From positions 870,001 to 902,000 of the forward strand of contig NZ_LNTB01000001.1 of the NCBI RefSeq assembly GCF_001462395.1: DNA of 32,000 nt, in the 5' to 3' direction. Under the pieces are notes generated by a model, which saw only the letters and a list, made by a program, of their open reading frames with translations, was not told where the DNA came from and made no database searches. Below are positions 609 to 30,445 of this stretch, one piece after another; position 1 is the first letter of the stretch, and every line of letters starts with the position of its first letter. The stretch comes from Pyrodictium occultum. Its GTDB lineage: Archaea > Thermoproteota > Thermoprotei_A > Sulfolobales > Pyrodictiaceae. The position numbers and the translations under genes were made by a program.

Positions 609-2129
609 TCAGCCGTAGACCTGCCTCAGCAGGGAGAGCACCGGGCCGGCAACCAGGTTGACGAGTATGAAGAGGGCTACGCCGAGCACCGCCAGGGCCA
701 CGAGGGGCGCGAGCAGGCCCCGCACGCCCTCCTCCCCAGCCCTCTCGTACGCCCTCCCCGGCCTGCCGAGGAACATGTTCCTGAAGGCGAGGAAGCTGTA
801 GACAGCAGTGAGCGTCATTGCCGCCGCGACGCCTGCCGCGAGGACCACGAAGGCGCCGGGCCCGTAGCCGCTGGCCCACCTGGCGAATCCGAAGACCAGG
901 TAGACCTCGCTCCACATGCCCAGCGTCGGGGGTATACCGGATATCATCATGAAGCCGAGGAGGGCTACGGCAGCCGTGTAGGGCATGCGCTGCAGCAGCC
1001 CACCCAGCTCCCCGAGGTCGCGGGTGCCCAGACCCACTATGAAGACGCCGGCGACGCCGAAGAGTATTGCCTTGCCCAGCGCGTGGGCCATATAGTGGAG
1101 CACCGTCCCGGTCTCACCCACCGGGTTTGCGGCCGCGAGCCCCAGCATAAGGTAGCCCATCTGCGATATGCTGCTATAGGCTAACAGCCTCTTCACATCC
1201 CTCTGGGCGAGCACCAGGAAGCCCCCGTAGAGCATGGTGGCCAGGGCCCAGAGGAGGAGGATGGGGCTAACGGAGCCCCAGAGGCGGGGGAAGAACCCGA
1301 CACCGGCCCGGAGCATGGCGTAGGCCCCTATCCCTATCAACAGCGGCGAGAGCAGCGCCGAGACCGGGGTAGGGGCCTCAGCGTGCGCGTAGGGGAGCCA
1401 GAGGTGGAGCCCAGACATGGCCATCTTGACCGCGAGCCCCACGACTATGAGCGCGAGCGCCAGCGCGTGGCCCCCGCCGGCCCCGGTTACGTAGCCGGAG
1501 CCAGGCAGGTAGAAGTCGTAGGAGTGGATGAGGAAGAGGCCCAGGAGGTAGAGGAGCGCGCCCAGGTGGGTCCAGACGAGGTAGATGAGGCCCACGCGCA
1601 CCCGGTCACCGTAGCCGTAGAGGACTATGAGGAGCGCGCTCGGGATCAGCGTGAGCTCGAGGAAGAGGTAGAAGAGTATACCGTTGCCAGCCATGACAGC
1701 GCCCAGCATCCCCGCGGTGAATAGCTGGTAGAGCAGGTAGTAGACGCCCCAGTGCCTCTCATCCAGCCCCATCTCCTCGAAGCGGTGCTCCATGTAGGGG
1801 CTGGAGTAGAGGGCCACAAGCAGGCTCACAACCGCGATGGTGAGGGCCATCGCAGCCCCCACGGCGTCGAGGAAGAGGCTGAACACCCCGACGCCGGGCA
1901 CCCTCGCCCAGAGAGGGTCTAGGACAACCCTGCCTCCCAGCGCGGCCGCGGCCGGGGGCAGGAGGAGGAGCAGGGAGATCAGCCAGCTGCCCGAGTTGAG
2001 CAGCACGTGGCCCCTCCGCCCGATCCTCGAGGCGTAGAGCCCGCTGACAGTACCCGCTATGGCCGGGGCGGCCACGCTGGCCCAGAGCAGAGGGAGGCCG
2101 AGCCCAGTCTCCTCCATCAGCCCCTTCAC
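609..2129 (-). CDS. nuoM: NADH-quinone oxidoreductase antiporter-like subunit (NuoM/ND4-type; NuoN not excluded)
   Basis: 506-aa polytopic membrane ORF. FYLFLELTLIPSALLIVLYG and GLHLWLPYAHAEAPTPVSALLSPLL match Proton_antipo_M family signatures. Its length fits NuoM. It has a 4-nt overlap with the nuoK stop. Confidence 0.75.
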   Translation of the reverse strand: MKGLMEETGLGLPLLWASVAAPAIAGTVSGLYASRIGRRGHVLLNSGSWLISLLLLLPPAAAALGGRVVLDPLWARVPGVGVFSLFLDAVGAAMALTIAVVSLLVALYSSPYMEHRFEEMGLDERHWGVYYLLYQLFTAGMLGAVMAGNGILFYLFLELTLIPSALLIVLYGYGDRVRVGLIYLVWTHLGALLYLLGLFLIHSYDFYLPGSGYVTGAGGGHALALALIVVGLAVKMAMSGLHLWLPYAHAEAPTPVSALLSPLLIGIGAYAMLRAGVGFFPRLWGSVSPILLLWALATMLYGGFLVLAQRDVKRLLAYSSISQMGYLMLGLAAANPVGETGTVLHYMAHALGKAILFGVAGVFIVGLGTRDLGELGGLLQRMPYTAAVALLGFMMISGIPPTLGMWSEVYLVFGFARWASGYGPGAFVVLAAGVAAAMTLTAVYSFLAFRNMFLGRPGRAYERAGEEGVRGLLAPLVALAVLGVALFILVNLVAGPVLSLLRQVYG

Positions 2130-2440
2130 CCCCGGGTCTCCTTCAGCAGGTCGACGCTCATGCTCCTCTTCTTACGGTACACGAGTATGAGGAGTGCAGC
2201 GACCACCGCGATCTCGGCTATAGTGAGCATTATGGTTGCGAGGAGGACACTGTAGAACCCTGGGCGGGCCCCTGCAACGAGGCCCGTGTAGGCGGCGGTA
2301 AGCACCACAGAGTTGAAGAATACTTCCACCGATATGAAGAGCTTCACGAGACTACGCGCTGTCATAACCCCGTAGAGCCCGGACATGCCGGCCACCAGCG
2401 CGGTCAGGTAGACGAGCAGCGTAAGGGCCTCGCCGTTCAC
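2126..2440 (-). CDS. nuoK: NADH-quinone oxidoreductase subunit K (NuoK/ND4L)
   Basis: 104-aa protein with three hydrophobic helices, including LFISVEVFFNSVVLT (an NuoK-like E-containing helix). GTG start. Its position between nuoJ and nuoM fits. Confidence 0.8.
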   Translation of the reverse strand: MNGEALTLLVYLTALVAGMSGLYGVMTARSLVKLFISVEVFFNSVVLTAAYTGLVAGARPGFYSVLLATIMLTIAEIAVVAALLILVYRKKRSMSVDLLKETRG

Positions 2441-2543
2441 AGCCCCGCCATCCTCCCAAGGGCTGTGCCAGCCCGGCTCGGGGACCAGCTGGGAAAAAGT
2501 TCTACTCTGCCTCCACGCCGCGGCGTCGGCGCGCCGGCCCCCT

Positions 2544-3080
2544 CTACTCCCCCCGGGGGGCGGCGGAGCCCCGCGCCATGGAGAGGGCCTCTATCAGCAC
2601 CGCTGCAACCGTCACCACCATTAGGAGGGTGCAGAGCCAGCAGTCCATCAGCACCCGGGCTGCCTGGGTGAAGCTGAGGCTCCTGGAGGCCAGCTCGCTG
2701 CTTGACACGGGGTGGCTGAGCGCATACATCGCCAGCGGCGCCTCGAGCGCGGCCGCGGCGAAGAAGGCTAGCACAAGCCTGCCAGGGTTCAGAGTCCTCG
2801 GCTCCACGCCGCAACCCAGCATCATAACCACTATGGCTAGGAGCATGATGCCCGCCCCCGTGTAGACGACTATGTGGAAGACCGAGAGGTAGCCGTAGCC
2901 CGTCAGCGCGAGAACCGCGGCAACCCCGAGCGAGGCAATGACAAGCCAGGCTATACTATGCACCGTCTTCCTAGCCATAATGGCTCCTACAGAGCCCGAG
3001 GCCGCTGCTAGCAGCGACACAACTATAGCCGCATCGAGGAGGCTAGCTTGCACGCTCATAGCGGAGCCCCGCCTTCTCAT
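2544..3080 (-). CDS. nuoJ: NADH-quinone oxidoreductase subunit J (NuoJ/ND6)
   Basis: Hydrophobic protein of about 178 aa lying between nuoI and nuoK. The track start at 3083 is TTG, immediately followed by ATG at 3078-3080. An alternative ATG at 3059 would shorten the overlap with nuoI. Confidence 0.65.
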   Translation of the reverse strand: MRRRGSAMSVQASLLDAAIVVSLLAAASGSVGAIMARKTVHSIAWLVIASLGVAAVLALTGYGYLSVFHIVVYTGAGIMLLAIVVMMLGCGVEPRTLNPGRLVLAFFAAAALEAPLAMYALSHPVSSSELASRSLSFTQAARVLMDCWLCTLLMVVTVAAVLIEALSMARGSAAPRGE

Positions 3081-3576
3081 CAACTCTGGCCCTAACCCGG
3101 GGCCTTGAGGGCTTCTTTATCTCCTCCCGCAGCTTCCTGGAGTATATAGCCCAGTCCACGGGGTCCAGGTCCATGGTCTCAAGCTTCTCGAACACCTTGT
3201 CATGCACTATGCTCGTCTCAAGCGCGTCAGTCGGGCATATGTCCGCGCAGAGCCCGCAGAAGATGCAGCGACCGATATCGTAGCCGGGCCTCATCCTCTT
3301 ATCGCCCGGCACCCTGAACATCTTGATCGCCCTGGAGGGGCAGACCTGGGCGCATAGCGTGCAGCCTATGCACTTGTTATAGTCGAAGAGTATTATGCCG
3401 TGGTAGTACTCCGGCTTCTCCTCCTCCACGTCGGGGTACTGGAGCGTCATAGGCGGGTGGAGCATCCGCCTAGCCACAGTGAGTATGGCGTCCAGGTGGC
3501 CCTTAACCGGGTTCACGCGCGGCGGCCTACGGCCAGCCCGACCCTTATCCCTCCTCTCGCTGAGGCCCGGAGCCAA
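3043..3576 (-). CDS. nuoI: NADH-quinone oxidoreductase subunit I (NuoI, 2x[4Fe-4S] ferredoxin-type)
   Basis: Two CxxCxxCxxxCP motifs are present: CIGCTLCAQVCP and CIFCGLCADICP. TLQYPDVE matches the conserved NuoI N-terminal block. TTG start at 3576. Confidence 0.9.
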   Translation of the reverse strand: MAPGLSERRDKGRAGRRPPRVNPVKGHLDAILTVARRMLHPPMTLQYPDVEEEKPEYYHGIILFDYNKCIGCTLCAQVCPSRAIKMFRVPGDKRMRPGYDIGRCIFCGLCADICPTDALETSIVHDKVFEKLETMDLDPVDWAIYSRKLREEIKKPSRPRVRARVDEKAGLRYERAS

Positions 3577-3582
3577 GATGGC

Positions 3583-4611
3583 TCACCCCGTGTAGATGTA
3601 GCGCACGAGAGCCGAGACGGCGAAGGCCAGGAGGGCCAGGGGGAAGAGACGCGACCAGAACATGTCGGCCGTCTGGTCCAGCCGCATCCTCCCATATACT
3701 GCGCGGAGGAACACCGTGAATAGCATTAGGGCGACCGTCTTGGCCAGCACGGCGATGCTGCCGAGCAGCGGGCTCGTGAAGGGCATCCAGCCCCCCAGGA
3801 AGAGGAGTGTGAACATGAGCATCAGCACGTAGAGCTTGGCGTAGTCCAGGGCCATTACCAGCGCGTAGAGGAGCCCGCTATACTCGGTGTAGGGGCCCTG
3901 CACTATCTCCTGCTCCCCCAGCACCAGGTCGAACGGCACCCTGTCGGTGACCAGGAGCGCGGCTATGAAGAAGAGCAGCGCCGCTATAGGGTTGGCCACG
4001 AGCCCTATAACCCCTGTAGCCATCTGCTTCTCGACAGCCTCGCTGAAGTCCAGAACACCATACATCATTGTGGTCGCTAGGAGGGAGGCGAGTAGGGTAG
4101 CCTCCCCCGTCACCGAGACCAGGGCCTCACGGCTGGCCCCGATGAAGGCGAACTTGTTGGAGGCCGCCCAGCCCATTATGACCGCTAGTATCGGGGTTAG
4201 GCCAATAATGGCTGTGGCGATGAGTATGCTGAAGGGCGTCCTGAACCCGTAGATCCCGGGGCCGCCAGGCACTACGGTGAATGCGAGCGCCACTATGGTG
4301 AAGGCGAGTACCGGGGCGAAGAGGAAGCTCCACTTCTCTGCCTCGACCGGCACTATTATCTCCTGGAAGGCGAACTTCACGCCATCCGCCAGCATCTGCA
4401 GCGCGCCCTGGAGCCTCGGCGAGACATAGTAGGGCCCCACCCTCATCTGGGCCCTGGCAGCGATCTTCCTCTCAGCCCAGATTATGAAGAGGGCCAGGAG
4501 GGTGAATGTGAGGAGCCCCGGGTAGACGAGGGGCGCGAACACCGCCCTCACAGCCCACTCGGGCACGCCTAGGCGGGCTGCGAGCCAGCCGAGCAGCATG
4601 GAAGCCTTCAC
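3583..4611 (-). CDS. nuoH: NADH-quinone oxidoreductase subunit H (NuoH/ND1)
   Basis: 342-aa polytopic membrane protein. ERKIAARAQMRVGPYYV, DGVKF and VPFDLVLGEQEIVQGPYTEYSG are classic ND1/NuoH blocks. Confidence 0.9.
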   Translation of the reverse strand: MKASMLLGWLAARLGVPEWAVRAVFAPLVYPGLLTFTLLALFIIWAERKIAARAQMRVGPYYVSPRLQGALQMLADGVKFAFQEIIVPVEAEKWSFLFAPVLAFTIVALAFTVVPGGPGIYGFRTPFSILIATAIIGLTPILAVIMGWAASNKFAFIGASREALVSVTGEATLLASLLATTMMYGVLDFSEAVEKQMATGVIGLVANPIAALLFFIAALLVTDRVPFDLVLGEQEIVQGPYTEYSGLLYALVMALDYAKLYVLMLMFTLLFLGGWMPFTSPLLGSIAVLAKTVALMLFTVFLRAVYGRMRLDQTADMFWSRLFPLALLAFAVSALVRYIYTG

Positions 4612-4620
4612 CCCCTCCTT

Positions 4621-5829
4621 CTACCGGTCAGCCTCCGGGGGGAAGTAGTCGATGCTCGCGTATATAGCGGGCACATCCATTAGCGTGTGGCCCCTGGCCA
4701 GGGCGTCGAAGAGCACCACGTTCCTAGCGCTCGGCGTCACCACGCGGAGCCGGTAGGGCTTCGTATCCCCGCTGCTGACCAGGTAGTAGGTCACCTCACC
4801 CCTCCCCATCTCTCCCCGGCCCACCACCTCGCCGGGCTTGGCCTTCAGCCTCACATAGCCCCCGGGGAGCTTGACGCGGCCCCGCTCGAACCACTTCCTC
4901 ATGGCCGGGGGCACCTGGCGGATGAACCGCTCGCTCATGAACGGGCCCTCGGGGAGCTGGCGGAGCGCCCTCTCTATCAGCTCGAGGCTGGCCTCTATCT
5001 CGCGGAGCCGGACCCATATCCTCTCGAGCGCGTCGCCCTCGCTCCCGACCACGGGCTCGAAGTCGAGCTCGCCGTAGGCGGCGTAGCCCAGGAGCCTGGC
5101 GTCGTAGCGGACGCCGCTAGCCCTCAGGTTAGGCCCAGTGGCTCCGAGGGCCACGGCACGGCTGCGGGGGAGGACCCCGACTCCCTCGAGCCTCCCCCTT
5201 ATCACCGGGTTGTTGAGGAACACCTTGTCGTACTCGCGGAGCCTGCGCAGCATGTAGCGCTTCGCCTTCTCGAACTCCTCGCGGAACACTTGGGGGAGGT
5301 CGAGACGGACCCCGCCGGGTATCGGGTAGGTGTGGGTAAGCCTCGTGCCCGTGAGCAGCGAGGCTAGGTGGACGAATACCTCGCGGTCGCCGAAGGCCCA
5401 CATGTACATGGTAGAGTGGTTGAGGAATATCCCGCCTATCCCGAGGCCGTAGAGGTGGCTCGCTATCCTGTTCACCTCGCAGAGGATGGTGCGCAGGTAC
5501 CTGGCCCTGGGCGGGGGCTCAACGCCCAGCAGCTTCTCCACAGCCTCGACGTAGGGGAGGGTAATGTTACAGGCGTCGATTATTGTCATGCGCTCCAGGA
5601 GGCTTATGATACGGACGTACTCTCTTACCTCGGAGAGCTTCTCCATAGTGCGGTGCACATACCCTATATCCGGGTCGACCCGTACAACCCTGTCACCGTC
5701 AAGATAGACGATAAGCCTCATATGCCCCGAGGCGGGGTGCTGGGGCCCTATGTAGAGCTCGACCACCCGGTAGCCCTCCCGGGTCCCGAGCTCCCGGCCC
5801 ATCATCCCCGGAAGCTCCACCGCGGCCAT
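4621..5829 (-). CDS. nuoD: NADH-quinone oxidoreductase subunit D (NuoD, 49-kDa/NiFe-hydrogenase large-subunit-like)
   Basis: LYIGPQHPASGHMRL, ERMTIIDACN and the C-terminal IDYFPPEADR are typical NuoD blocks. The track start at 5853 is GTG. I prefer the ATG at 5827-5829 (MAAVELPG...). Confidence 0.9.
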   Translation of the reverse strand: MAAVELPGMMGRELGTREGYRVVELYIGPQHPASGHMRLIVYLDGDRVVRVDPDIGYVHRTMEKLSEVREYVRIISLLERMTIIDACNITLPYVEAVEKLLGVEPPPRARYLRTILCEVNRIASHLYGLGIGGIFLNHSTMYMWAFGDREVFVHLASLLTGTRLTHTYPIPGGVRLDLPQVFREEFEKAKRYMLRRLREYDKVFLNNPVIRGRLEGVGVLPRSRAVALGATGPNLRASGVRYDARLLGYAAYGELDFEPVVGSEGDALERIWVRLREIEASLELIERALRQLPEGPFMSERFIRQVPPAMRKWFERGRVKLPGGYVRLKAKPGEVVGRGEMGRGEVTYYLVSSGDTKPYRLRVVTPSARNVVLFDALARGHTLMDVPAIYASIDYFPPEADR

Positions 5830-5948
5830 AGCGTCAGCCACCCCGCGCAGCACGGCGGACGGCTGAGACCATGAAGACCTGGGTTCGACTACTGACGCGT
5901 AATGCTAGGCGCCCCCGGCCCGAAGCACCGGCCAAGGCGTCAAGCACC

Positions 5949-5958
5949 CTAAAATACT
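5949..5958. promoter_or_regulatory. TATA-like AT island (ctaaaatact) in the nuoD/nuoC divergent spacer
   Basis: This is the most AT-rich patch of the 254-nt spacer between the divergent nuoD (minus) and nuoC (plus). It reads TATTTTAG on the minus strand. Its distance to either start codon is long (about 95-150 nt), so the assignment is weak. Confidence 0.25.
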
Positions 5959-6107
5959 GAGCCCCAGACGGAATAGCCATTGTACAGCATCGGTCAATAG
6001 GACCCCGCACACCCAGCGGGCCAGCGGCTAAGAAGGGGCCCGGGGGAGGGCTTCACAGCGCTTCCGGGAGGCTCCTCCGGCCCCTAGGCGGGAGGTGCAG
6101 GAGACCC

Positions 6108-6644
6108 TTGCAGGAGCTAGAGGAGCTCCTAGCGGGCCTAGCTCAGCGTGTCGAGGAGCGCCAGGGAGTGAAGGTGGCTATCGTGGAGCCTAGCCGGCTC
6201 CGCGAGGCTGCGGAGAGGCTGCGGGAGGCCGGCTACGACTACCTCCTCATGGTCAGCGGGGTGGATGAGCCAAAGCAGGGGAGGATGAGAATAGTCTACC
6301 ATATAACGAGGAGCAGCAACCCCTCCGAGCTAGTCGCCCTCGAGGTCATGGTGCCGCGTGACGACCCCCGCGTGCCCTCGGTATACGACATCTACCCGGC
6401 GGCGCAGATCCAGGAGAGGGAGGAGCACGAGATGCTGGGCATAGTGTTCGAGGGCAACCCGGACCTCCGCCACCTGCTCCTCCCCGAGGACTGGCCCGAG
6501 GGTGTCTACCCGCTCCGCAAGGACTTCCACGTGGCCGAGGAGCCCTACATATCCTCCAAGCCGAGCAAGCCGATATGGGTGCTGAAGCCCGAGCTGAAGC
6601 CCGGCGGCGAAGCCGGGGCTGGAGAGGGAGGCGGAAAAGGCTGA
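6108..6644 (+). CDS. nuoC: NADH-quinone oxidoreductase subunit C (NuoC, 30-kDa subunit), encoded on the opposite strand to the rest of the nuo cluster
   Basis: EREEHEMLGIVFEGNPDLRHLLLPEDWPEGVYPLRKDF is the Complex1_30kDa signature (ERE..GI.F.GHPDLR..L....W.G.PLRKD). TTG start. The stop lies 14 nt from the convergent nuoB stop. Confidence 0.85.
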   Translation: MQELEELLAGLAQRVEERQGVKVAIVEPSRLREAAERLREAGYDYLLMVSGVDEPKQGRMRIVYHITRSSNPSELVALEVMVPRDDPRVPSVYDIYPAAQIQEREEHEMLGIVFEGNPDLRHLLLPEDWPEGVYPLRKDFHVAEEPYISSKPSKPIWVLKPELKPGGEAGAGEGGGKG

Positions 6645-23626: not shown

Positions 23627-24415
23627 CTATGAGGCCCTCTCCACGTAGAGCACGAGCCTCACAGTTACGGGGAACTCCTGGCCGGCTATAGGGTACCAGT
23701 AGCCCGCCACGTAGTTTGGCCCCGCCACGTCCTTGTAGACCACCACCGGGCTGGCGGCCCACATGGGGTGCCGGCCCGTCGAGTTCAAGACCTCGATCAT
23801 GGCGTAGACGAGCCTGTAGCCGCCGGGCACGTCTATCCTATAGTCCACCCGGTATAGGCCGGTGCTGGGGCTTGTCACGGATAGCGTTAGGTTCGCGTCA
23901 CCCGCCTCCAGGGTCCTGCTGTACCCGTCCTGGGCGGGGAGCCTAGCAACTATCGCCCCCATCAGGCTGCATAGGGGGGCTACGGGCGCCACAGCCTCCA
24001 CGCCGCTGCGCGCCACAATCTTGGCGTACACCGGGTTGACCAGGCTGGTGTTCTCGAGGGGTAGCACGATCAGGGCGGTGAAGCCCCCGGGCGGGATACT
24101 CATGCCCCCCGTTATGTTGTAGACCACCGCAGGTATCGCCGAGCCCGTCGAGTCCAGTATGTAGCCGCTAGTCATGTTGTCCAGCTCGGCCGCCGCGAGG
24201 CCCGTGTTGCTCAGCGACACCTTTACCCCGTAGCAGTAGCTCCCATTGCCGCTGTAGAGGGGCGCGGCGTCCTCGATACGCAGCTCGGGCAGCAGCGCCG
24301 GAGTCCCTAGGGAGCCCGAGACCTGGCCGCTGAGCCAGGTGTAGAGGAGGGCGGCTGCCGCGGCAGCTATGAGTATCAGCAGCACCTCCGCCACCACCGG
24401 CGATAAAGCCCTCAA
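23627..24415 (-). CDS. Archaeal type IV pilin-like protein with a class III signal peptide (Pilin_N / DUF1628-type)
   Basis: The N-terminus (M)RALSPVVAEVLLILIAAAAAALLYTWLSG matches the archaeal prepilin motif (basic residue, small residue, then SPV(I/V)..vLLi.I.v..a..ly.w). The remainder is beta-rich and carries seven N-x-S/T sequons (NGS, NTG, NMT, NIT, NTS, NLT, NST). TTG start. Confidence 0.75.
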   Translation of the reverse strand: MRALSPVVAEVLLILIAAAAAALLYTWLSGQVSGSLGTPALLPELRIEDAAPLYSGNGSYCYGVKVSLSNTGLAAAELDNMTSGYILDSTGSAIPAVVYNITGGMSIPPGGFTALIVLPLENTSLVNPVYAKIVARSGVEAVAPVAPLCSLMGAIVARLPAQDGYSRTLEAGDANLTLSVTSPSTGLYRVDYRIDVPGGYRLVYAMIEVLNSTGRHPMWAASPVVVYKDVAGPNYVAGYWYPIAGQEFPVTVRLVLYVERAS

Positions 24416-24522: not shown

Positions 24523-25092
24523 ATGCAACCCAGAGCGAGGGGGTCATGGTTGCCGGGGAGCCGTGGAGAGGAGCCAAGGGTGCTAGGCTTCCGGGAGCTG
24601 TGCCGCGGCCGCCGCTTCTCCTTCGGCCAGGTAGAGGCCCTGGTTAACGGGCAGAGGAGGCTGTTCGACACGTTCCAGCACCCGGGCGCGGTGGCCGTGG
24701 TGGCGGTGGACGAGCGGGGCAGGGTGCTTATGGAGCGCCAGTACCGGCCGAGCGTGGGGGAGTGGCTCTACGAGATCCCCGCCGGCACGCTGGAGCCGGG
24801 GGAGGAGCCGGAGGAGACTGCGCGGAGGGAGCTTGTGGAGGAGACCGGCTACGAGCCGGGCTGGCTCAGGCCCCTGGCCAGGTTCTACAGCAGCCCCGGG
24901 GTCTCCACAGAGATGCTCTACATCTACGCGGCGGGCGGGCTCAGGGAGGTGGGGGCCAGGCCGGAGGAGGACGAGGTGATAGAGGTCCGCTGGGTCCCGC
25001 TGGAGGAGGCGCTGGAGATGATCAAGAGGGGGGAGATAAGGGACTGCAAGACCCTGGCCGGGCTCCTGCTATACAAGTTTCTCCTCGGCTAG
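24523..25092 (+). CDS. Nudix hydrolase, ADP-ribose pyrophosphatase-like
   Basis: The Nudix box is GTLEPGEEPEETARRELVEETGY (GX5EX7REUXEEXGU). The surrounding AVAVVAVDERGRVLMERQYRP and SPGVSTEMLYIY resemble NudF-type enzymes. The start is uncertain. Confidence 0.8.
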   Translation: MQPRARGSWLPGSRGEEPRVLGFRELCRGRRFSFGQVEALVNGQRRLFDTFQHPGAVAVVAVDERGRVLMERQYRPSVGEWLYEIPAGTLEPGEEPEETARRELVEETGYEPGWLRPLARFYSSPGVSTEMLYIYAAGGLREVGARPEEDEVIEVRWVPLEEALEMIKRGEIRDCKTLAGLLLYKFLLG

Positions 25093-25767
25093 CATCCTCC
25101 CCAGGCTGCCCTGCACCACCCAGCCCCGGCCCGGGCCGGCGTAGTAGACGAGGCCCTCCTCGCGGAGGAGCCGGAAGAGAGCCTTGTAGCGGCCCATCTG
25201 CGCCTCTGCCTCGTACTCGTCGCTCGCCCGGAGCCCCCTCAGCCTCTCGAGGAACTCGCGGAGCCCCTGCCGCGTCAGCACCACGGTCTCCCCGCCCAGG
25301 CCGGCCACCACTAGGCCCCTCCTCCGGGCCTCCTCCGGGTCGAAGCCCTCCCGGGCCTCCGGCGGCAGCTCGTGGAGCAGCACGTAGCCCCTGCCCCGGA
25401 GCCTCTCGGCCACGGCGCGGAGCCAGGCGGGCTCCTCCCTGGCCCGGCTCCCCTGCGCCTGCCGCAGCGCCTGGGCCACCGCGGCCGATATGGCGCGGGC
25501 CAGCTCCTCCACGTCGCGGCGCGTTAGCCCGCCTCCCCGGCGCTCCAGCGCCTCCAGCCTCCTCTCGATGGCCTCCAGCCTCTCCTCTATCCTCTCAAGC
25601 CTCTCGAGGAGGGCCTTATCGGCCCCCTCCCCGCAGCCCCCGCCGGCCTCCCTGGCGGCCTCCTCCGCCACGCGGCGGATCAGCTCCTCCACGTCTACCT
25701 GCCTGGAGTGGACTGCCGCCCCCAGCTCGCGGAGGTAGTCGTCCAGCCGCCGGTTCCTAGGCATCAC
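25069..25767 (-). CDS. Hypothetical coiled-coil protein with two wHTH-like C-terminal modules; downstream partner of the giant NTPase
   Basis: 232 aa. It has a heptad-like LERLERIEERLEAIERRLEALERR segment (nt 25537-25614), then GYVLLHELPP...GLVVAGLGGETVVLTRQGLREFLERL and YKALFRLLREEGLVYYAGPGRGWVV. The antisense ORF (24762-25760) is P/R/G/A low-complexity. The start is GTG at 25767 followed directly by ATG at 25764. Confidence 0.6.
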   Translation of the reverse strand: MMPRNRRLDDYLRELGAAVHSRQVDVEELIRRVAEEAAREAGGGCGEGADKALLERLERIEERLEAIERRLEALERRGGGLTRRDVEELARAISAAVAQALRQAQGSRAREEPAWLRAVAERLRGRGYVLLHELPPEAREGFDPEEARRRGLVVAGLGGETVVLTRQGLREFLERLRGLRASDEYEAEAQMGRYKALFRLLREEGLVYYAGPGRGWVVQGSLGRMLAEEKLV

Positions 25768-25921
25768 CGCTGCCCCTTCCTGCCCCCCGGGAGGCTCTGG
25801 GAGGAGGGGTTCTCCCGGCCCCTCTTCCCCCTCTCGCTCGTTGCCGGCCGGGCCTCCCTATAGCTCTGCCTGGGGGTGGCCGAAGCTAATCCCGCCGCCC
25901 GGAGGCCGCGGGGAAGAGAGG

Positions 25922-28900
25922 CTAGAGCCTGGGCTCCAGGACCTCCTTCTCGATGAGGGATATCAGTATCCTCCTGGCCTCCTCGAGGCCGATCCCCATC
26001 CTCTCGGCCACTATCTCGGCGGCCTCGCGGAGCAGCAGCTCGCCCCTCCTCCTCCGCTCCAGCGCCACCAGCTTGTAGGCCTCCAGCTCCTCCGGCGAGA
26101 GCAGCCCTGCTCCCTCAGCCATCCTCCTCAGCTCCTCCATGTAGCCGTGCAGCCTGGCCACGGCCTCGAACGGGTCCCCGGCCCTGGGGGGCTCCGGGGC
26201 CCCGGAGCCCGCCCTCTCCAGCGCCTCGCGGAGCGCCTGCGCCTCCGCCTCCAGCGCGCTGCGCAGCCTCTCAGCCTCCGCCACCGCGTCGGCGTGAACC
26301 CTCTTAGCCCTCTCAAGGCTGTCCCGGAGCACCGCCACGGCGCTCTCCACCAGCCCCCTGGCCTCCCTGGCGGCCTCGACCCGGCCCCCGCCCCTCCTCA
26401 GCGCCTCCATCGCATTGCTCCTGAGCGCCCTGGCCTGGTCCAGGGCCAGCGCCAGGTCCTCCACCGCCTCCCCGAGCCTCCTCGAGGAGGGGAGCCCGGC
26501 CTCCCCGGCCCTGGCCCTGGCCTCCTCGAGGCCGTGGAGCCAGCTCTCCGCCTCGGCGGCCAGCTCCTCCATCGCCTCCAGGCTCTGGAGCAGCCGGTCC
26601 ACCTGCTCCTCCAGCTCCAGCAGGGGCCGGCGGCCCTCCTCGAGCTGGCGCCGGGCCTCGGCGAGCAGCTGCTCAGCCTCGTCCAGGCCTATCTCGCCGG
26701 GCGCCTCCAGGCCCTGCAGCACTATCGCCTGGGGCTCCGGGGCCTCGGCGCCCAGCCTCCGCAGCCTCTCGGCCAGCTCCTCCGCCCTCCTCCGGAGCCC
26801 GGCGGTCTCCTCCAGCAGTCTCCGCAGCCTCTCGGCCAGCTCCTCCAGCGCCCTGAGCGTGCTCTGCAGCCACTCGCCCTCCTCTATCCCGCTGGGGGTC
26901 AGCTTGGCCAGCCCCAGCTCCTCGAGCCTCCTCGCTACCAGCCAGAGCTTGTAGTTGAAGTGCAGCGCCGGCCCGGTGCCGGAGACGTAGAAGGGGTTCA
27001 CCCGGCCGGGGTCGCGGGGCCTCCGGCGCCTGGCCTCCTCCCAGAGCCTCCTGGCCTCCTCCTCCAGCTGCGCCTCGCTGATCCTCAGCTCCTCTATCTC
27101 CTCCACTGCGTGGACCGCCTCCCTCAGCCTCTCGAGCCCCTCTATCCTCAGCCTCACCTTCCTGCCGGTGAGCCTCTCCAGCAGCCTCTCGGTCTCCCTG
27201 CGGGCCTCCTCTATCCTGCCGGCGTACTCCTCCAGCCGCGCCCTCAGCCTCCTCGCCTCCGCGGCGGCGGGCTTCACGTGGCCCCGGAGGATCTCGCCTC
27301 TCACGTACTCCGCCGCGTCGAGCACGGTGCGGGCCAGCCGGAGGGACATGAGCAGGTTGCCAGCCTTCAGGGCCTCCTCGGCAGTGGCCAGCAGGCCTCT
27401 CATCTTCCTGGCGAACCCCTCGAGGCTTCCAGCCCTGTAGTCCCTCGCCTTCGCGGAGACTATCAGCCCCCAGCTCCTCGCCTCGGGGTCCCCCTCTATC
27501 TCCTCGACGAGCTCCCGGGCCTCCCGTATCAGCTGCCACGCTGCCTCCTCGCTGTCGCGGAGCCGGAGCCTGGAGCGCTCGGGGTCAACCCTCCTCTCGG
27601 AGGAGGCGGCGACGAGGCCCCGGTAGACGAGGCTCTGGAGCAGCATTCTCCTAGTGCCCGGGTTGCGAGCCTCGACAACCAGCAGCTCCCAAACCCTGGA
27701 CGCCTGGACCTCCTGGCTCCGGGCGCCCAGCTGCTCCAGGGCCCGGAGCACGCTCCTCTCCACGGGGCTGAGCACGTCCACCCTCGCCGAGCCGTTCGTC
27801 TTCTCCAGGAAGCCGTTGGCGGCCAGCAGGAGCATGTACTTCTCCAGGGTCTGGACCTCGCCCCGGTCTATGTCGGGGCTCAGCAGGCCCCGCCCCTCGC
27901 CGCCCGGGCCGCGGTAGAGGTGGTACCTCATAACGTACTCGTAGGCGGCGTGCAGCGCCTCCCTGGCGGAGGCCCTCGTGCTCGGGACCACGAGGAAGTA
28001 GCGGAGCGCGCCGCTCAGCTCCGTCGGCCTCTCGACGTCGTAGCCCAGCTTCGGGTCCCTCACCAGAAGCGGGGCCCCCTCGACGCCCTCCTCTAGCCCC
28101 CGCTCCAGCCTCTCCCTGGGCCTCAGCTCCTCGGCGAGCTCGCGGAGCATGGAGTGGAGGCGGAGGGGGTCCAGCCCGAGCCTCTCGGCGGCCTCCGGGC
28201 TCCCCGCGGCCTCCACGGCGGCGTGCAGCGCCTCCTCCAGCCCGCCCGTCTCGGCGGCCAGCTTCACCCCGAGGGCCTGGAGCCTGACGCGGCTAACCAT
28301 GGACTCTATGGGGGCGTCGACTATCTTCAGGAAGAGCTTGCCCTCGAGGCTTTCGAGCAGCCTCCTGGCCCGCGGCTCCACCCCTCCATGGTGCACCAGC
28401 AGCACGGCGTGGGGCCTCCAGCCGCTCATAACGGCAGCCATCACCTGGCTCTCCAGCCTCCTAGCCTCCTCGGCGGTCACCTCGCCCGGCACCGCGTAGA
28501 CCAGCACCCGGGCCCTCGCGCCCCCCTGGAGCACGGCCTCAGCCCTAGCCACGCCCTCGCCCTGGAGCGCCGGCGGCTCCCTTAGCAGCCCCTCGGCGGC
28601 CAGCACAGCGGCGGCGCCGGCGGCGAGGTGGCTGCGGCCGGCCTCGGTGTAGACGCGGCGTATCACCTGCAGCCTCTCGACACGGTCAGCTATGAAGTCC
28701 AGGTAGCTCAGCTCGGGGCTCACGTAGAGGAGGCGCTGCAGCCTCGGCGACAGCATGTAGGCCCTGGAGCCGCCGGCGCCCAGGAGCCGGGAGAATAGGG
28801 CCTCCCAGAGCAGCTGGGCCAGCCTCTCGGCCTCCGAGCGGCTTAGCTCCAGCGGCGACGCGTCCGCCACCAGGTCCACCGCGGCCCTCTCGTCCGGGGG

Positions 28901-30445
28901 CACGGCCACGACCAGCCTGCCCGTGGGCTCGGTGTAGACGAGGCTGTCGAGCAGCTGCTCCAGCGGGCTCCCCCCATCCATCCCCGCCAGCTGGGGGAGG
29001 AGCTTCACAGCCTCCGGCTCCACCGTGCGGAGAAGCTTGAAGGCATCCTCCACCGCCGGGGTCTCGAGCACTTCGTGGACGAGCCTCTGCACCCCCAGCT
29101 CGCGGCGGGGCCAGGACTGCTCGCCGTAGAGGTTCATCTCCCTAACCATCTCCTCAAGGACGCCGGGCCTGGCCCCGAGCGCGGCGGCGAGGTCCTCCAC
29201 CGGCGCGGCGCCCCTGGCCACGAGCTCCTCGAGCAGCCTCCTGGCGAGCCCCGCGTCGAAGCCCGCCAGCCTCGCCCGGGCCCCCCAGCCCTCAGCCAGC
29301 CTCGAGTAGGCCTCGCTGTTGAGGGCCGGCAGCTCGGCGCCGCCGACGCTCAGCGTGAGGCCCTGGAGGGCCTCCAGCAGCTCCCCGGTATCGAGCACGG
29401 CCACGCCGTCGCCGCAGTCACCGCGGCCCCGCGCCCAGGAGACTAGGTAGCGGAAGGCCGAGACCAGTGCCCCCATGTTGCCCAGCGTGCCTGATACCAC
29501 AGCGTGGGCCAGGCTGTGGTCCCTGAGCAGCCCCTCGAGCCCCCTGCCGAGAGTGTAGCGGGCGAGGCTCTCCAGGAAGGCGAAGGCCTCGCGCCTGGTG
29601 AGCGGCCTTATCCAGATACTCCTCACTCTCCTCCGGAGCCTCGCGGCCACGGTGGCGAAGTCCCTTAGCCCCATCAGCCTGCTGTAGGCCGGGGGAGTGA
29701 GGCTGGCCACCAGGTGGAGGGCGCCCGGCATGCAGCCCTCGCCGCTGCAGCCGGCGGAGACTATCTCCACGTCGCCGTTCAGTATGCCCACGAGCCCTGC
29801 CACGAGCTCCGCCAGCTCCTCCTCCCTCGCCGAGGCGACGAGGTCCTCGAGCTCGTCTATGAACACTACGAGCCTACCGCCCCTGGGCACCAGGCCGCGG
29901 AGCACCCTCTCCACGTAGCCCCGGAGGCTCTCCGCCCCATCGGGGCCGCCGTAGCGGGGGAGGAGCCCCCTCTGCTCCAGCCCCGCGGCGAGGAGCGCGG
30001 CGGCGAGCCGGTAGGCGGGGCCCCTCTCGCTCCTGCCGCGCAGCGAGGAGAGGTGGGCGAGCACCGTGGCGGCCCGGGCCTCGAGGCCCAGCCAGCCCCT
30101 CTCCTCCAGCCAGGGCCTGATCCTAGCGTTGTATACGCTTGTCTTCCCCTCCCCCCACTCCGCCACGAGGAGCACGAGGACGGGGTCCTGGCTCTTCTCC
30201 ATCTCGTTGAGGGCCTCGGCTACCTGCTGGTAGACCCTCTGCCTGCTCGGCAGCGGGGGGAGGTACTCGTCGAGCCTCCTGGCGTCCGTGCCAGTCAGGC
30301 TCGGCAGCCTCGCGGGCGGCGGCCCGCAGCGCCTGGCCACAGTCTCCGGAGGCATAGCCGAAACCCGGGTGTAGAGGCATGAGTAACACTCATACAGCGG
30401 CACCCCTCGGCTCCCGGCGGCCAGCCCGTAGTACACGGGTAGCAC
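25922..30445 (-). CDS. Very large orphan P-loop NTPase (about 1477-1507 aa): STAND/ORC-like ATPase head, helical/wHTH-like middle, long E/R/A/L coiled coil, C-terminal wHTH-like tail
   Basis: Walker A AEWGEGKTS is at nt 30137-30163 and Walker B RLVVFIDELED at 29843-29869, about 100 aa apart. IWIRPLTRREAFAFLESL matches the L.PL...EA..F(L) block of archaeal ATPase/AAA_16/STAND families. The C-terminal 470 aa or so is dominated by E/R/A/L heptad-like sequence, and the last 60 aa (REAAEIVAERMGIGLEEARRILISLIEKEVLE) looks like an HTH. The start is either the GTG at 30445 or the ATG at 30353-30355. Confidence 0.8.
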   Translation of the reverse strand: MLPVYYGLAAGSRGVPLYECYSCLYTRVSAMPPETVARRCGPPPARLPSLTGTDARRLDEYLPPLPSRQRVYQQVAEALNEMEKSQDPVLVLLVAEWGEGKTSVYNARIRPWLEERGWLGLEARAATVLAHLSSLRGRSERGPAYRLAAALLAAGLEQRGLLPRYGGPDGAESLRGYVERVLRGLVPRGGRLVVFIDELEDLVASAREEELAELVAGLVGILNGDVEIVSAGCSGEGCMPGALHLVASLTPPAYSRLMGLRDFATVAARLRRRVRSIWIRPLTRREAFAFLESLARYTLGRGLEGLLRDHSLAHAVVSGTLGNMGALVSAFRYLVSWARGRGDCGDGVAVLDTGELLEALQGLTLSVGGAELPALNSEAYSRLAEGWGARARLAGFDAGLARRLLEELVARGAAPVEDLAAALGARPGVLEEMVREMNLYGEQSWPRRELGVQRLVHEVLETPAVEDAFKLLRTVEPEAVKLLPQLAGMDGGSPLEQLLDSLVYTEPTGRLVVAVPPDERAAVDLVADASPLELSRSEAERLAQLLWEALFSRLLGAGGSRAYMLSPRLQRLLYVSPELSYLDFIADRVERLQVIRRVYTEAGRSHLAAGAAAVLAAEGLLREPPALQGEGVARAEAVLQGGARARVLVYAVPGEVTAEEARRLESQVMAAVMSGWRPHAVLLVHHGGVEPRARRLLESLEGKLFLKIVDAPIESMVSRVRLQALGVKLAAETGGLEEALHAAVEAAGSPEAAERLGLDPLRLHSMLRELAEELRPRERLERGLEEGVEGAPLLVRDPKLGYDVERPTELSGALRYFLVVPSTRASAREALHAAYEYVMRYHLYRGPGGEGRGLLSPDIDRGEVQTLEKYMLLLAANGFLEKTNGSARVDVLSPVERSVLRALEQLGARSQEVQASRVWELLVVEARNPGTRRMLLQSLVYRGLVAASSERRVDPERSRLRLRDSEEAAWQLIREARELVEEIEGDPEARSWGLIVSAKARDYRAGSLEGFARKMRGLLATAEEALKAGNLLMSLRLARTVLDAAEYVRGEILRGHVKPAAAEARRLRARLEEYAGRIEEARRETERLLERLTGRKVRLRIEGLERLREAVHAVEEIEELRISEAQLEEEARRLWEEARRRRPRDPGRVNPFYVSGTGPALHFNYKLWLVARRLEELGLAKLTPSGIEEGEWLQSTLRALEELAERLRRLLEETAGLRRRAEELAERLRRLGAEAPEPQAIVLQGLEAPGEIGLDEAEQLLAEARRQLEEGRRPLLELEEQVDRLLQSLEAMEELAAEAESWLHGLEEARARAGEAGLPSSRRLGEAVEDLALALDQARALRSNAMEALRRGGGRVEAAREARGLVESAVAVLRDSLERAKRVHADAVAEAERLRSALEAEAQALREALERAGSGAPEPPRAGDPFEAVARLHGYMEELRRMAEGAGLLSPEELEAYKLVALERRRRGELLLREAAEIVAERMGIGLEEARRILISLIEKEVLEPRL
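26757..26846 (-). repeat. Intragenic direct repeat: two identical 27-nt copies (ctccgcagcctctcggccagctcctcc) 63 nt apart
   Basis: Copies at 26757-26783 and 26820-26846 are identical on the plus strand. Both encode EELAERLRRL within ...ELAERLRRLLEETAGLRRRAEELAERLRRLGAE..., which is a 21-residue (three-heptad) register. Confidence 0.85.
30379..30393. promoter_or_regulatory. Inverted repeat ATGAGT-AAC-ACTCAT just upstream of the ATG candidate start of the giant NTPase gene
   Basis: 6-bp perfect arms with a 3-nt spacer lie in the least GC-rich patch between acyP and the ATG at 30355, 24-38 nt upstream of it. If the GTG at 30445 is the real start, the repeat is coding instead (..YECYSCLY..). Confidence 0.3.

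Follow-up and report, generated by a model that had tools for sequence, protein, structure and literature searches.

What is the protein encoded by the longest gene in a 32,000-nucleotide stretch of the Pyrodictium occultum genome (GCF_001462395.1, contig NZ_LNTB01000001.1, positions 870,001 to 902,000; hereafter the window), and with which partners might it work? The gene, here called X, encodes a P-loop ATPase that the original prediction, made from the letters of the window, took for the largest gene product of the stretch and could assign to no characterised family; the open reading frame (ORF) list and the scans described below agree with it on both points. X belongs to a previously undescribed archaeal family with an Orc1/Cdc6-type AAA+ head, and genes for NurA and/or HerA adjoin it at about 22 of about 31 other loci, though neither does so in the window or its closest relatives. 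The reading that we favour, at a probability of roughly one half, is that X would be an ATP-dependent DNA sensor or scaffold that directs NurA (with or without HerA), that it descends from a modification-dependent, restriction-like ancestry and that it has become an orphan in the window.

25922..30445, minus strand: maximal ORF of X, 1507 aa from a GTG codon; ORF list and 24 full-length homologues

Among 5.8 billion proteins searched with X as the query, 24 relatives were found (1378-1499 aa, 39-100% identity, all unannotated); they come from Pyrodictium abyssi (83%), Hyperthermus butylicus (65%) and metagenome bins of Pyrodictiaceae and Thermoproteota. An alignment-based word-indexed search recovered exactly the 24 proteins already found with the single sequence. 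When a profile of residues 37-1010 was scored against 1.84 billion representative proteins, 221 clusters passed E ≤ 1e-3 and 193 passed E ≤ 1e-10, mostly of 1390-1460 aa. The earlier label of 'orphan' is thus right for annotation and wrong for homology. The family is small, forms a discrete group and stands clearly apart from the bulk of AAA+ proteins. It is defined by R68, EWGEGKT, DExE, N223, H244, T250, R273, E286, F584, H679, K999, F1152 and K1166; the window protein is collinear with the family over its full length and carries all of these invariant residues. In a census of one genome per GTDB species, 31 X loci were found in Pyrodictiaceae, other Desulfurococcales including Ignicoccus pacificus, Archaeoglobales, Thermoplasmata, Hydrothermarchaeota, Aenigmatarchaeota and Methanophagales; two X loci lie on contigs binned as bacteria.

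Pfam, NCBIfam and PADLOC do not place X: scans of the full protein and of eight sub-segments gave generic P-loop/AAA matches and coiled-coil noise only. Among PDB sequences the single protein had no match, the full-length profile retrieved coiled-coil and de novo helical proteins only, and the N-terminal profile gave nothing below E = 0.019. No description of the family, or of the five-gene operon introduced below, was found in the literature searched on NurA/HerA in connection with deazaguanine, DpdA, DUF5591, TGT or STAND.

Hidden Markov models (HMMs) built for NurA, HerA, DUF5591, TGT and X were run on all 41 loci (L numbers) and sort the X loci into the following arrangements:

L024, L027, L031, L034, L040, L041: NurA, HerA, X, DUF5591 and TGT
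L026, L032, L033, L035, L037, L038: HerA (with or without NurA) and X, some on truncated contigs
L002, L003/4, L005, L014, L016, L017, L018, L021-23: X and NurA
the window's clade, L025, L030 (Ignicoccus): X alone

X alone is also found in P. abyssi and L009-L011. Pfam agrees on the identities of the neighbouring genes. Five-gene operons occupy L027:3109-11804, L031:2991-12023, L034:3246-11776, L040:1134-10028 and L041:527-9621; the L041 genes overlap at their ends by 4-8 nt and 4 nt, which makes this operon a tight one. In the distant Pyrodictiaceae-type loci L002, L003/4 and L005, a NurA-domain gene follows X at a distance of 11-13 nt. Alignment shows that the X-linked NurA proteins retain the invariant GVDG, E117 and DGPxVDPP motifs. 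The TGT-like proteins pass only the general TGT superfamily model and fall short of TgtA, DpdA and ArcS (35-65 bits against the DpdA equivalog, cut-off 200). DUF5591 is the catalytic core of the archaeosine synthase ArcS, and a stand-alone 'ArcS2', working with DpdA, a homologue of TGT, yields 2'-deoxyarchaeosine (dG+) in DNA (PMC10516641).

In a neighbour-joining tree of the X head and middle region, the window's clade (Pyrodictium and Hyperthermus, X alone) is nested within the X-NurA clade; loci with a split X gene next to NurA branch outside, as does the five-gene locus L041, which is the outgroup. The orphan state in Pyrodictium and Hyperthermus is therefore derived: the gene set shrank from five to two and then, with loss of the adjacent nuclease, to one.

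Other neighbours of X vary from locus to locus. HepT/MNT toxin-antitoxin pairs, a D12-class Dam methyltransferase or an AAA_15/AAA_21 ATPase flank it at L003:5831-6681, L005:6801-7374, L040:345-978, L031:2029-2895 and L024:8884-10119. Such neighbours are typical of defence islands, unlike the housekeeping surroundings in the window. In L006:500-7298 (= L012), a Thermoproteota bin with P0012, X has an Orc1/Cdc6 gene immediately upstream of it and, some 4.7 kb upstream in the same orientation, a HerA-NurA pair. The arrangement may be left over from the ancestral linkage or may reflect nearness to a replication origin.

The head of the protein supplies the ATPase of the proposed sensor.

29426..30268, minus strand: AAA+ core plus lid, Orc1/Cdc6 type (aa ~60-340); AlphaFold2 model, Foldseek, nSTAND1/AAA_16 matches, invariant residues
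30137..30163, minus strand: Walker A, AEWGEGKTS (aa 95-103), unchanged in 24/24 aligned members
29843..29872, minus strand: Walker B strand, VVFIDELEDL (aa 192-201), with D197, E198 and E200 invariant

The Walker A residues E96-W-G-E-G-K-T102 and the Walker B residues D197-E198-x-E200 are invariant in 24/24 members, down to ~20% identity, and the two motifs are spaced 96 aa apart in a single AAA+ domain. The original prediction had described them as contiguous, about 100 aa apart, and had ruled out an SMC/Rad50/ABC layout; spacing and fold bear out both statements. An AlphaFold2 model of residues 37-1010 (model 1, calculated from the family alignment) has a mean predicted local distance difference test score (pLDDT) of 83. 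Foldseek comparison with the PDB ranks archaeal Orc1/Cdc6 proteins first [1w5s_B (1.2e-6), then 2qby_A and 1fnn_A], followed by PAB2304, eukaryotic ORC subunits, MuB and RFC; solved STAND proteins rank below Orc1/Cdc6. The aligned spans of ~400 columns correspond to the AAA+ base, the lid and the adjoining winged helix. Compared with viral structures, model 1 gave generic AAA+ matches only. From the order of DSSP elements we read a helix-loop-helix insert after the second strand of the modelled head, which we take to be the initiator-clade insert. The head also has a sensor-1 residue (T250), R272/R273 just before strand 5 at the Arg-finger position, and a lid motif G322-N-x-G. Scanned alone, it scores 29.2 bits against Pfam nSTAND1 (cut-off 27.1), covering profile positions 19-156 of 379 only, and 29.2 bits against AAA_16, just short of the cut-off of 32.6; nSTAND_NTPase5 is matched by 12/24 members, every one below cut-off. 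Of the predicted 'STAND/ORC-like head', the ORC likeness stands, with Orc1/Cdc6 at the top of the Foldseek ranking, and the STAND likeness is at most suggested by the partial nSTAND1 match.

Two assignments of the head were rejected. As an Orc1/Cdc6 initiator, which is its best structural match over the first ~400 residues (AAA+ base, lid and winged helix), X fails by TIGR02928 score (14.6 bits, cut-off 181) and by length: 1471-1507 aa, ~1100 residues longer than an initiator of ~400 aa, with no consistent origin context. The KAP P-loop NTPase match covers profile positions 2-42 only, in the Walker A region, and X has no inserted hydrophobic segment. A C-x4-C...H...C set (aa 233, 238, 244 and 344; about 29414..29749) is inserted after the Walker B strand and before that of sensor 1. 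Its cysteines are kept only in the Pyrodictiaceae clade, being replaced by G/K or gaps in distant relatives, and a zinc site C233/C238/H244/C344 was rejected as a feature of the family; within the clade the set may bind a metal or contribute to thermostability.

Behind the head, the modelled middle region (aa ~346-1007) offers candidate DNA-binding modules.

28691..29410, minus strand: first winged-helix-like module plus helical/beta linker (aa ~346-585); model DSSP, weak AsnC-type helix-turn-helix (HTH) match
28241..28708, minus strand: alpha/beta domain (aa ~580-735); model DSSP, pLDDT about 90, conservation, no Pfam match
27425..28213, minus strand: helical linker plus further winged-helix-like modules (aa ~745-1007); models, weak HrcA winged-HTH match, conservation

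The winged-helix-like modules at aa ~346-470 and ~860-1007 are read from DSSP element order, not from superposition, and the Pfam HTH matches are weak (E 0.04-0.08); the 'HTH-like stretches' noted earlier fall within these helix/strand arrangements. The alpha/beta domain begins with a two-helix connector and continues as beta-beta-beta-alpha-beta-alpha-beta-alpha, with F584 and H679 ('WRPH') invariant. Between aa ~745 and 1007 there is an NPGT-initiated helix (aa 928-941) and a beta-hairpin wing with invariant K999/R1001. Within X, the winged-helix region belongs to the better conserved stretches. In one sub-clade the gene is split (L021:4180-8650, L022:5977-10442, L023:5977-10433) into ORFs of ~603 and ~890 aa that overlap by a few bases and are followed by NurA, and representatives of 581-615 aa, halves of X, are also among the profile-search clusters. 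The N-terminal half of the split variants ends at about aa 600, and the split point marks a module boundary, after the first winged-helix region.

The C-terminal half was modelled separately (model 2, aa 980-1507, pLDDT 90).

27026..27424, minus strand: first long-helix arm (aa ~1008-1140), E/R/A/L-rich; helices of 20, 63, 16 and 18 residues in model 2, pLDDT >90, heptads at aa 1065-1095
26861..27025, minus strand: apex 'knuckle' subdomain (aa ~1141-1195); short helices plus a two-strand hairpin in model 2, conservation
26096..26860, minus strand: second long-helix arm (aa ~1196-1450); helices of 40, 62, 31 and 57 residues, heptads, generic coiled-coil matches only
25925..26095, minus strand: small C-terminal HTH-like bundle (aa ~1451-1507); model 2 helices at its residues 472-520, weak Xre-like HTH match (E = 0.004)

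The helical span of ~440 aa (aa ~1008-1450) consists in model 2 of long helices of 63, 40, 62, 31 and 57 residues with breaks between them, and a crude heptad test picks out four stretches only (aa 1065-1095, 1188-1236, 1275-1313 and 1354-1383). This span is therefore described as an arm of separate coiled-coil segments that folds back and bears an apex, not as one coil of 470 aa; of the '~470-aa coiled coil' described earlier, the helical character stands and the continuity does not. The 'non-coil knuckle' is real, at aa ~1141-1190, and no residues of the C-terminal half are better conserved than its F1152, N1164 and K1166, which are kept in members at ~20% identity. The tail, predicted to be winged-HTH-like, is an HTH-like bundle of 3-4 helices in which there is no room for a wing; L1497 and E1504-P1505 are conserved. 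Against the PDB, model 2 gave nothing better than E = 0.3 in Foldseek, and profile matches of X to SMC, Rad50, JetC and LmuB fall in the coil region only. X has no transmembrane segment (the highest 19-residue Kyte-Doolittle mean is 1.55) and no effector domain in Pfam, as had been supposed.

A STAND- or MalT-type transcription regulator, whose C-terminal HTH would bind DNA under the control of ATP-dependent oligomerisation, is very unlikely. Such a regulator would account for the nSTAND1 and AAA_16 matches of the isolated head, the HTH-like tail and the several winged-helix-like modules. This option of the original prediction finds no support. There is no LuxR/MalT-type HTH profile match; Pfam finds no C-terminal repeats or sensor (TPR/WD40/LRR), no ligand-binding domain and no N-terminal effector, and the models show winged helices and long helices in their place. 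The head is nearer to Orc1/Cdc6 than to any solved STAND protein, and X shares its conserved operons with a nuclease and a translocase rather than with metabolic genes under regulation.

On the reading that we favour, the AAA+ insert and the winged helices would be the DNA-binding parts of X, ATP would drive its oligomerisation on DNA, and the long arm with its apex would bridge DNA or dock NurA/HerA. NurA is a dimer and HerA a hexamer; X would license or position NurA, with the HerA translocase where present, for DNA degradation. The ancestral setting would be the five-gene operon of HerA, X, NurA, ArcS-core and TGT-like genes, perhaps best read as restriction-modification-like, in which a 7-deazaguanine-type mark made by TGT and ArcS-core would separate self from non-self DNA. 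Pyrodictiaceae would then have reduced the operon to X-NurA, and the Pyrodictium/Hyperthermus clade would have kept X only. In the window, X would most likely act with a NurA/HerA encoded elsewhere in the genome, or might have become a stand-alone DNA scaffold.

The same linkage admits another explanation. In archaea the established role of HerA-NurA is end resection (PMC12977600), and X could be a genome-maintenance factor, an AAA+ analogue of Rad50 that senses or tethers DNA ends or damage and passes them to HerA-NurA in the double-strand-break repair of hyperthermophiles. We regard this as unlikely, if a serious candidate. It fits the operon linkage to HerA and NurA, the Rad50 logic of an ATPase head with a long antiparallel helical arm and a conserved apex, the position of X near Orc1/Cdc6 and HerA-NurA in L006, the conserved rather than hypervariable winged-helix modules, and the slow vertical evolution of a syntenic locus among housekeeping genes in Pyrodictium. 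X is nevertheless an AAA+ protein with contiguous Walker motifs, whereas Rad50 is an ABC ATPase split by its coil; the apex of X has no Zn-hook CxxC, Mre11 is not present, and the linked HerA and NurA are divergent, with HerA far below both repair and anti-phage HerA cut-offs (109 bits against 800 for the repair equivalog). Operons with a divergent TGT and ArcS-core in at least 6 distant lineages are hard to explain by repair. X is rare and patchy (221 clusters across all metagenomes), and toxin-antitoxin, Dam methylase and AAA_15/21 neighbours at several loci also speak against a repair role.

Among known systems, the closest parallel to a nuclease-directing scaffold is BrxC/PglY of bacteriophage exclusion (BREX). 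BrxC/PglY comprises an ORC/Cdc6 AAA+ domain, a winged HTH, an alpha+beta domain of ~200 aa after a bi-helical connector, one or more further winged HTHs and a coiled coil of 250-500 aa that holds a small two-strand subdomain, and its proposed role is that of an oligomeric scaffold that binds DNA and serves an effector complex (PMC12839542). X resembles it in size (~1200-1500 aa), in the ORC/Cdc6-clade AAA+ domain with its Arg finger and, according to model 2, in the ~440 aa of long helices with a two-strand knuckle at aa ~1141-1190; the order of secondary structure behind the head is consistent with the BrxC succession of winged HTH, alpha/beta domain (roughly 150-200 aa) and winged HTH. By this analogy X is probably built like BrxC and probably works like it. 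The two differ in their partners (NurA, HerA, ArcS-core and TGT-like proteins for X; PglZ, PglX, BrxA and BrxB in BREX), in the extra C-terminal HTH of X, in the almost wholly archaeal and thermophile-associated distribution of the X family and in the absence of any partner gene around the window copy.

'Capture' systems, which join an Orc/Cdc6-type or BrxC-like ATPase to a HerA/FtsK translocase and a nuclease, sometimes with a TGT homologue, are read by their authors as interception of foreign DNA combined with deazaguanine marking (PMC12839542; PMC10853773); neither paper mentions NurA. The definition of BREX-related capture (BRC) calls for PglZ, DUF6079, a STAND NTPase, DUF4007 and often GNAT, and X was seen with none of these; the effector of X would be NurA, and the TGT of X loci is accompanied by the ArcS-core (DUF5591). 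The Dpd systems and phage DpdA/ArcS2 share with the distant X relatives a TGT-family protein and a stand-alone ArcS-core beside DNA-acting ATPases and nucleases, but the TGT of X loci falls below the DpdA equivalog score, DpdB and DpdC are not seen, and none of these genes is in the window.

Several results weigh against the reading of X as a nuclease-directing scaffold of restriction-like descent. The BrxC likeness of the post-head domains compares the order of secondary structure elements with a published description and is not a superposition. None of the 24 members (0/24) matches BrxC, DUF6079 or DUF499 profiles in Pfam, PADLOC or NCBIfam, and hhalign of the 24-sequence X profile with seven diverse BrxC sequences (E. 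coli HS and six plasmids) gives an insignificant probability of 3.1%. The middle domains are conserved in X, whereas the BrxC region corresponding to its winged helices is called hypervariable (PMC12839542). The HMM scan found no NurA, HerA, TGT or ArcS-core gene in the 32-kb window, where X has housekeeping neighbours, and a search with the NurA alignment returned 8 proteins, none of them from Pyrodictium or Hyperthermus. Slow, vertical and syntenic evolution is atypical for defence genes. The TGT/ArcS-core pair, finally, could be a split tRNA archaeosine enzyme linked to X for another reason.

X is not filed as BrxC, since neither profiles nor gene context match. That it might be a divergent BrxC/PglY of a degenerate BREX system is barely credible: the domain order, as read from the models, is that of BrxC, and BrxC itself (9zdx_C) is among the Foldseek matches of model 1 (rank 27, E = 6e-4), but the profile results contradict membership, as does hhalign of the X profile with one BrxC sequence (probability 0.8%, insignificant), and PglZ, PglX/BrxX, BrxA and BrxB are annotated neither in the window and loci L001-L007, L040 and L041 nor in any locus with Pfam calls. 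The suggestion that X was a STAND/ORC-type sensor or defence NTPase related to BrxC came nearest of those made earlier, by virtue of domain order and of the operons with NurA, HerA, ArcS and TGT; membership of BrxC, DUF499, BrxD or Avs found no support, since no profile matched. No defence partner is found in the window.

The rate at which X evolves bears on what the orphan copy may now do. Identities to P. abyssi in the window are as follows:

POR-beta: 91%
acylphosphatase: 90%
X: 83% (orthologue)
NUDIX: 80%
transporters: 74-75%
232-aa gene: 70%
pilin-like gene: 43%

These values place X under ordinary to strong purifying selection, with no sign of an arms race. In the window's lineage X might be viewed as a domesticated structural protein, an organiser of DNA or chromatin or a cytoskeletal scaffold, with no nuclease partner. 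This is improbable. The strong purifying selection, the long helical arm, the several modules of DNA-binding type and the solitary state of X in the window, P. abyssi, L009-L011, Ignicoccus (L030) and L025 suit it, and the slow evolution of the copy, alone among housekeeping genes, leaves some room in this lineage for the chromatin or cytoskeletal scaffold of the original prediction. No cytoskeletal or chromatin family matches, and the catalytic and apex residues common to nuclease-linked relatives stay invariant, which argues for an unchanged core mechanism.

Taken at its fullest extent, the sensor reading becomes doubtful: X, HerA-NurA and ArcS-core/TGT marking might together form a new archaeal DNA-surveillance machine, restriction-modification-like and assembled from repair and tRNA-modification parts, whose sensor was domesticated in Pyrodictiaceae (growth near or above 100 °C) into a genome-maintenance factor without a dedicated nuclease gene. 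A partnership of HerA-NurA with a BrxC-like AAA+ scaffold and archaeosine/7-deazaguanine enzymes is unreported in the literature searched. Were the five-gene operon indeed a modification-dependent restriction system, it would be a new type of archaeal defence and a second route by which tRNA-modification enzymes have been recruited to DNA. The BrxC-type design of head, winged helices and arm would then be a general adaptor for effectors (PglZ in BREX, NurA here), giving a handle on the mechanism of BrxC. The Pyrodictium copy would stand at the end of a natural reduction series (five genes, two, one), and comparison of its stages might reveal the role of the scaffold by itself in an organism at the upper temperature limit of life.

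The start of X is probably not the GTG of the maximal ORF. In an alignment of 21 sequences nearly all homologues begin at Met37 ('MPPET', ATG at 30337), which makes this ATG a likelier start than the GTG at 30445; the coding sequence would then be 25922..30337, of ~1471 aa. The original prediction had allowed that the ORF might be a fusion artefact of several genes. A fusion or frameshift artefact is ruled out by more than 24 intact single-ORF homologues of 1378-1499 aa, and the existence of a naturally split variant likewise contradicts it. Long ORFs run antisense to X, for example 25841..28096 on the plus strand (751 aa), with translations rich in Pro, Gly, Leu and Arg. The window has a G+C content of 60-75% (72% in X), and these ORFs are therefore read as compositional by-products, not genes.

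Upstream of X in the window lie the genes for acylphosphatase and pyruvate:ferredoxin oxidoreductase; downstream are a 232-aa coiled-coil protein, a NUDIX protein, a pilin-like protein and an amino-acid permease, with Nuo-type and Opp transporter genes farther off. The neighbourhood is syntenic with that in P. abyssi.

25069..25767, minus strand: 232-aa coiled-coil gene, homologue in P. abyssi only (70% identity)

This gene had been proposed to pair with X. Its homologues are confined to P. abyssi, and other members of the window's clade have unrelated genes downstream of X; it is therefore not a conserved partner, and the pairing is refuted. The protein was also rejected as a degenerate NurA, as it carries no NurA signal and gives coiled-coil noise only in Pfam and PADLOC. 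The 3' end of the gene overlaps the convergent NUDIX gene (24523..25092, plus strand) by about 24 nt. A supposed paralogue at 5961..6641 is NuoC (Complex1_30kDa, 4.4e-36), the match being compositional.

The pilin-like protein (262 aa, 23627..24415, minus strand) is by far the fastest-evolving of the nearby gene products when compared with its syntenic P. abyssi counterpart. Its N-terminus, MRALSPVVAEVLLILIAAAAAALLY, presumably represents an archaeal type IV pilin/class III signal peptide, which it resembles. At the other end of the window, 609..6644 holds a Nuo/Mrp-type respiratory complex cluster with Proton_antipo_M, NADHdh and the 49-kDa and 30-kDa subunits.

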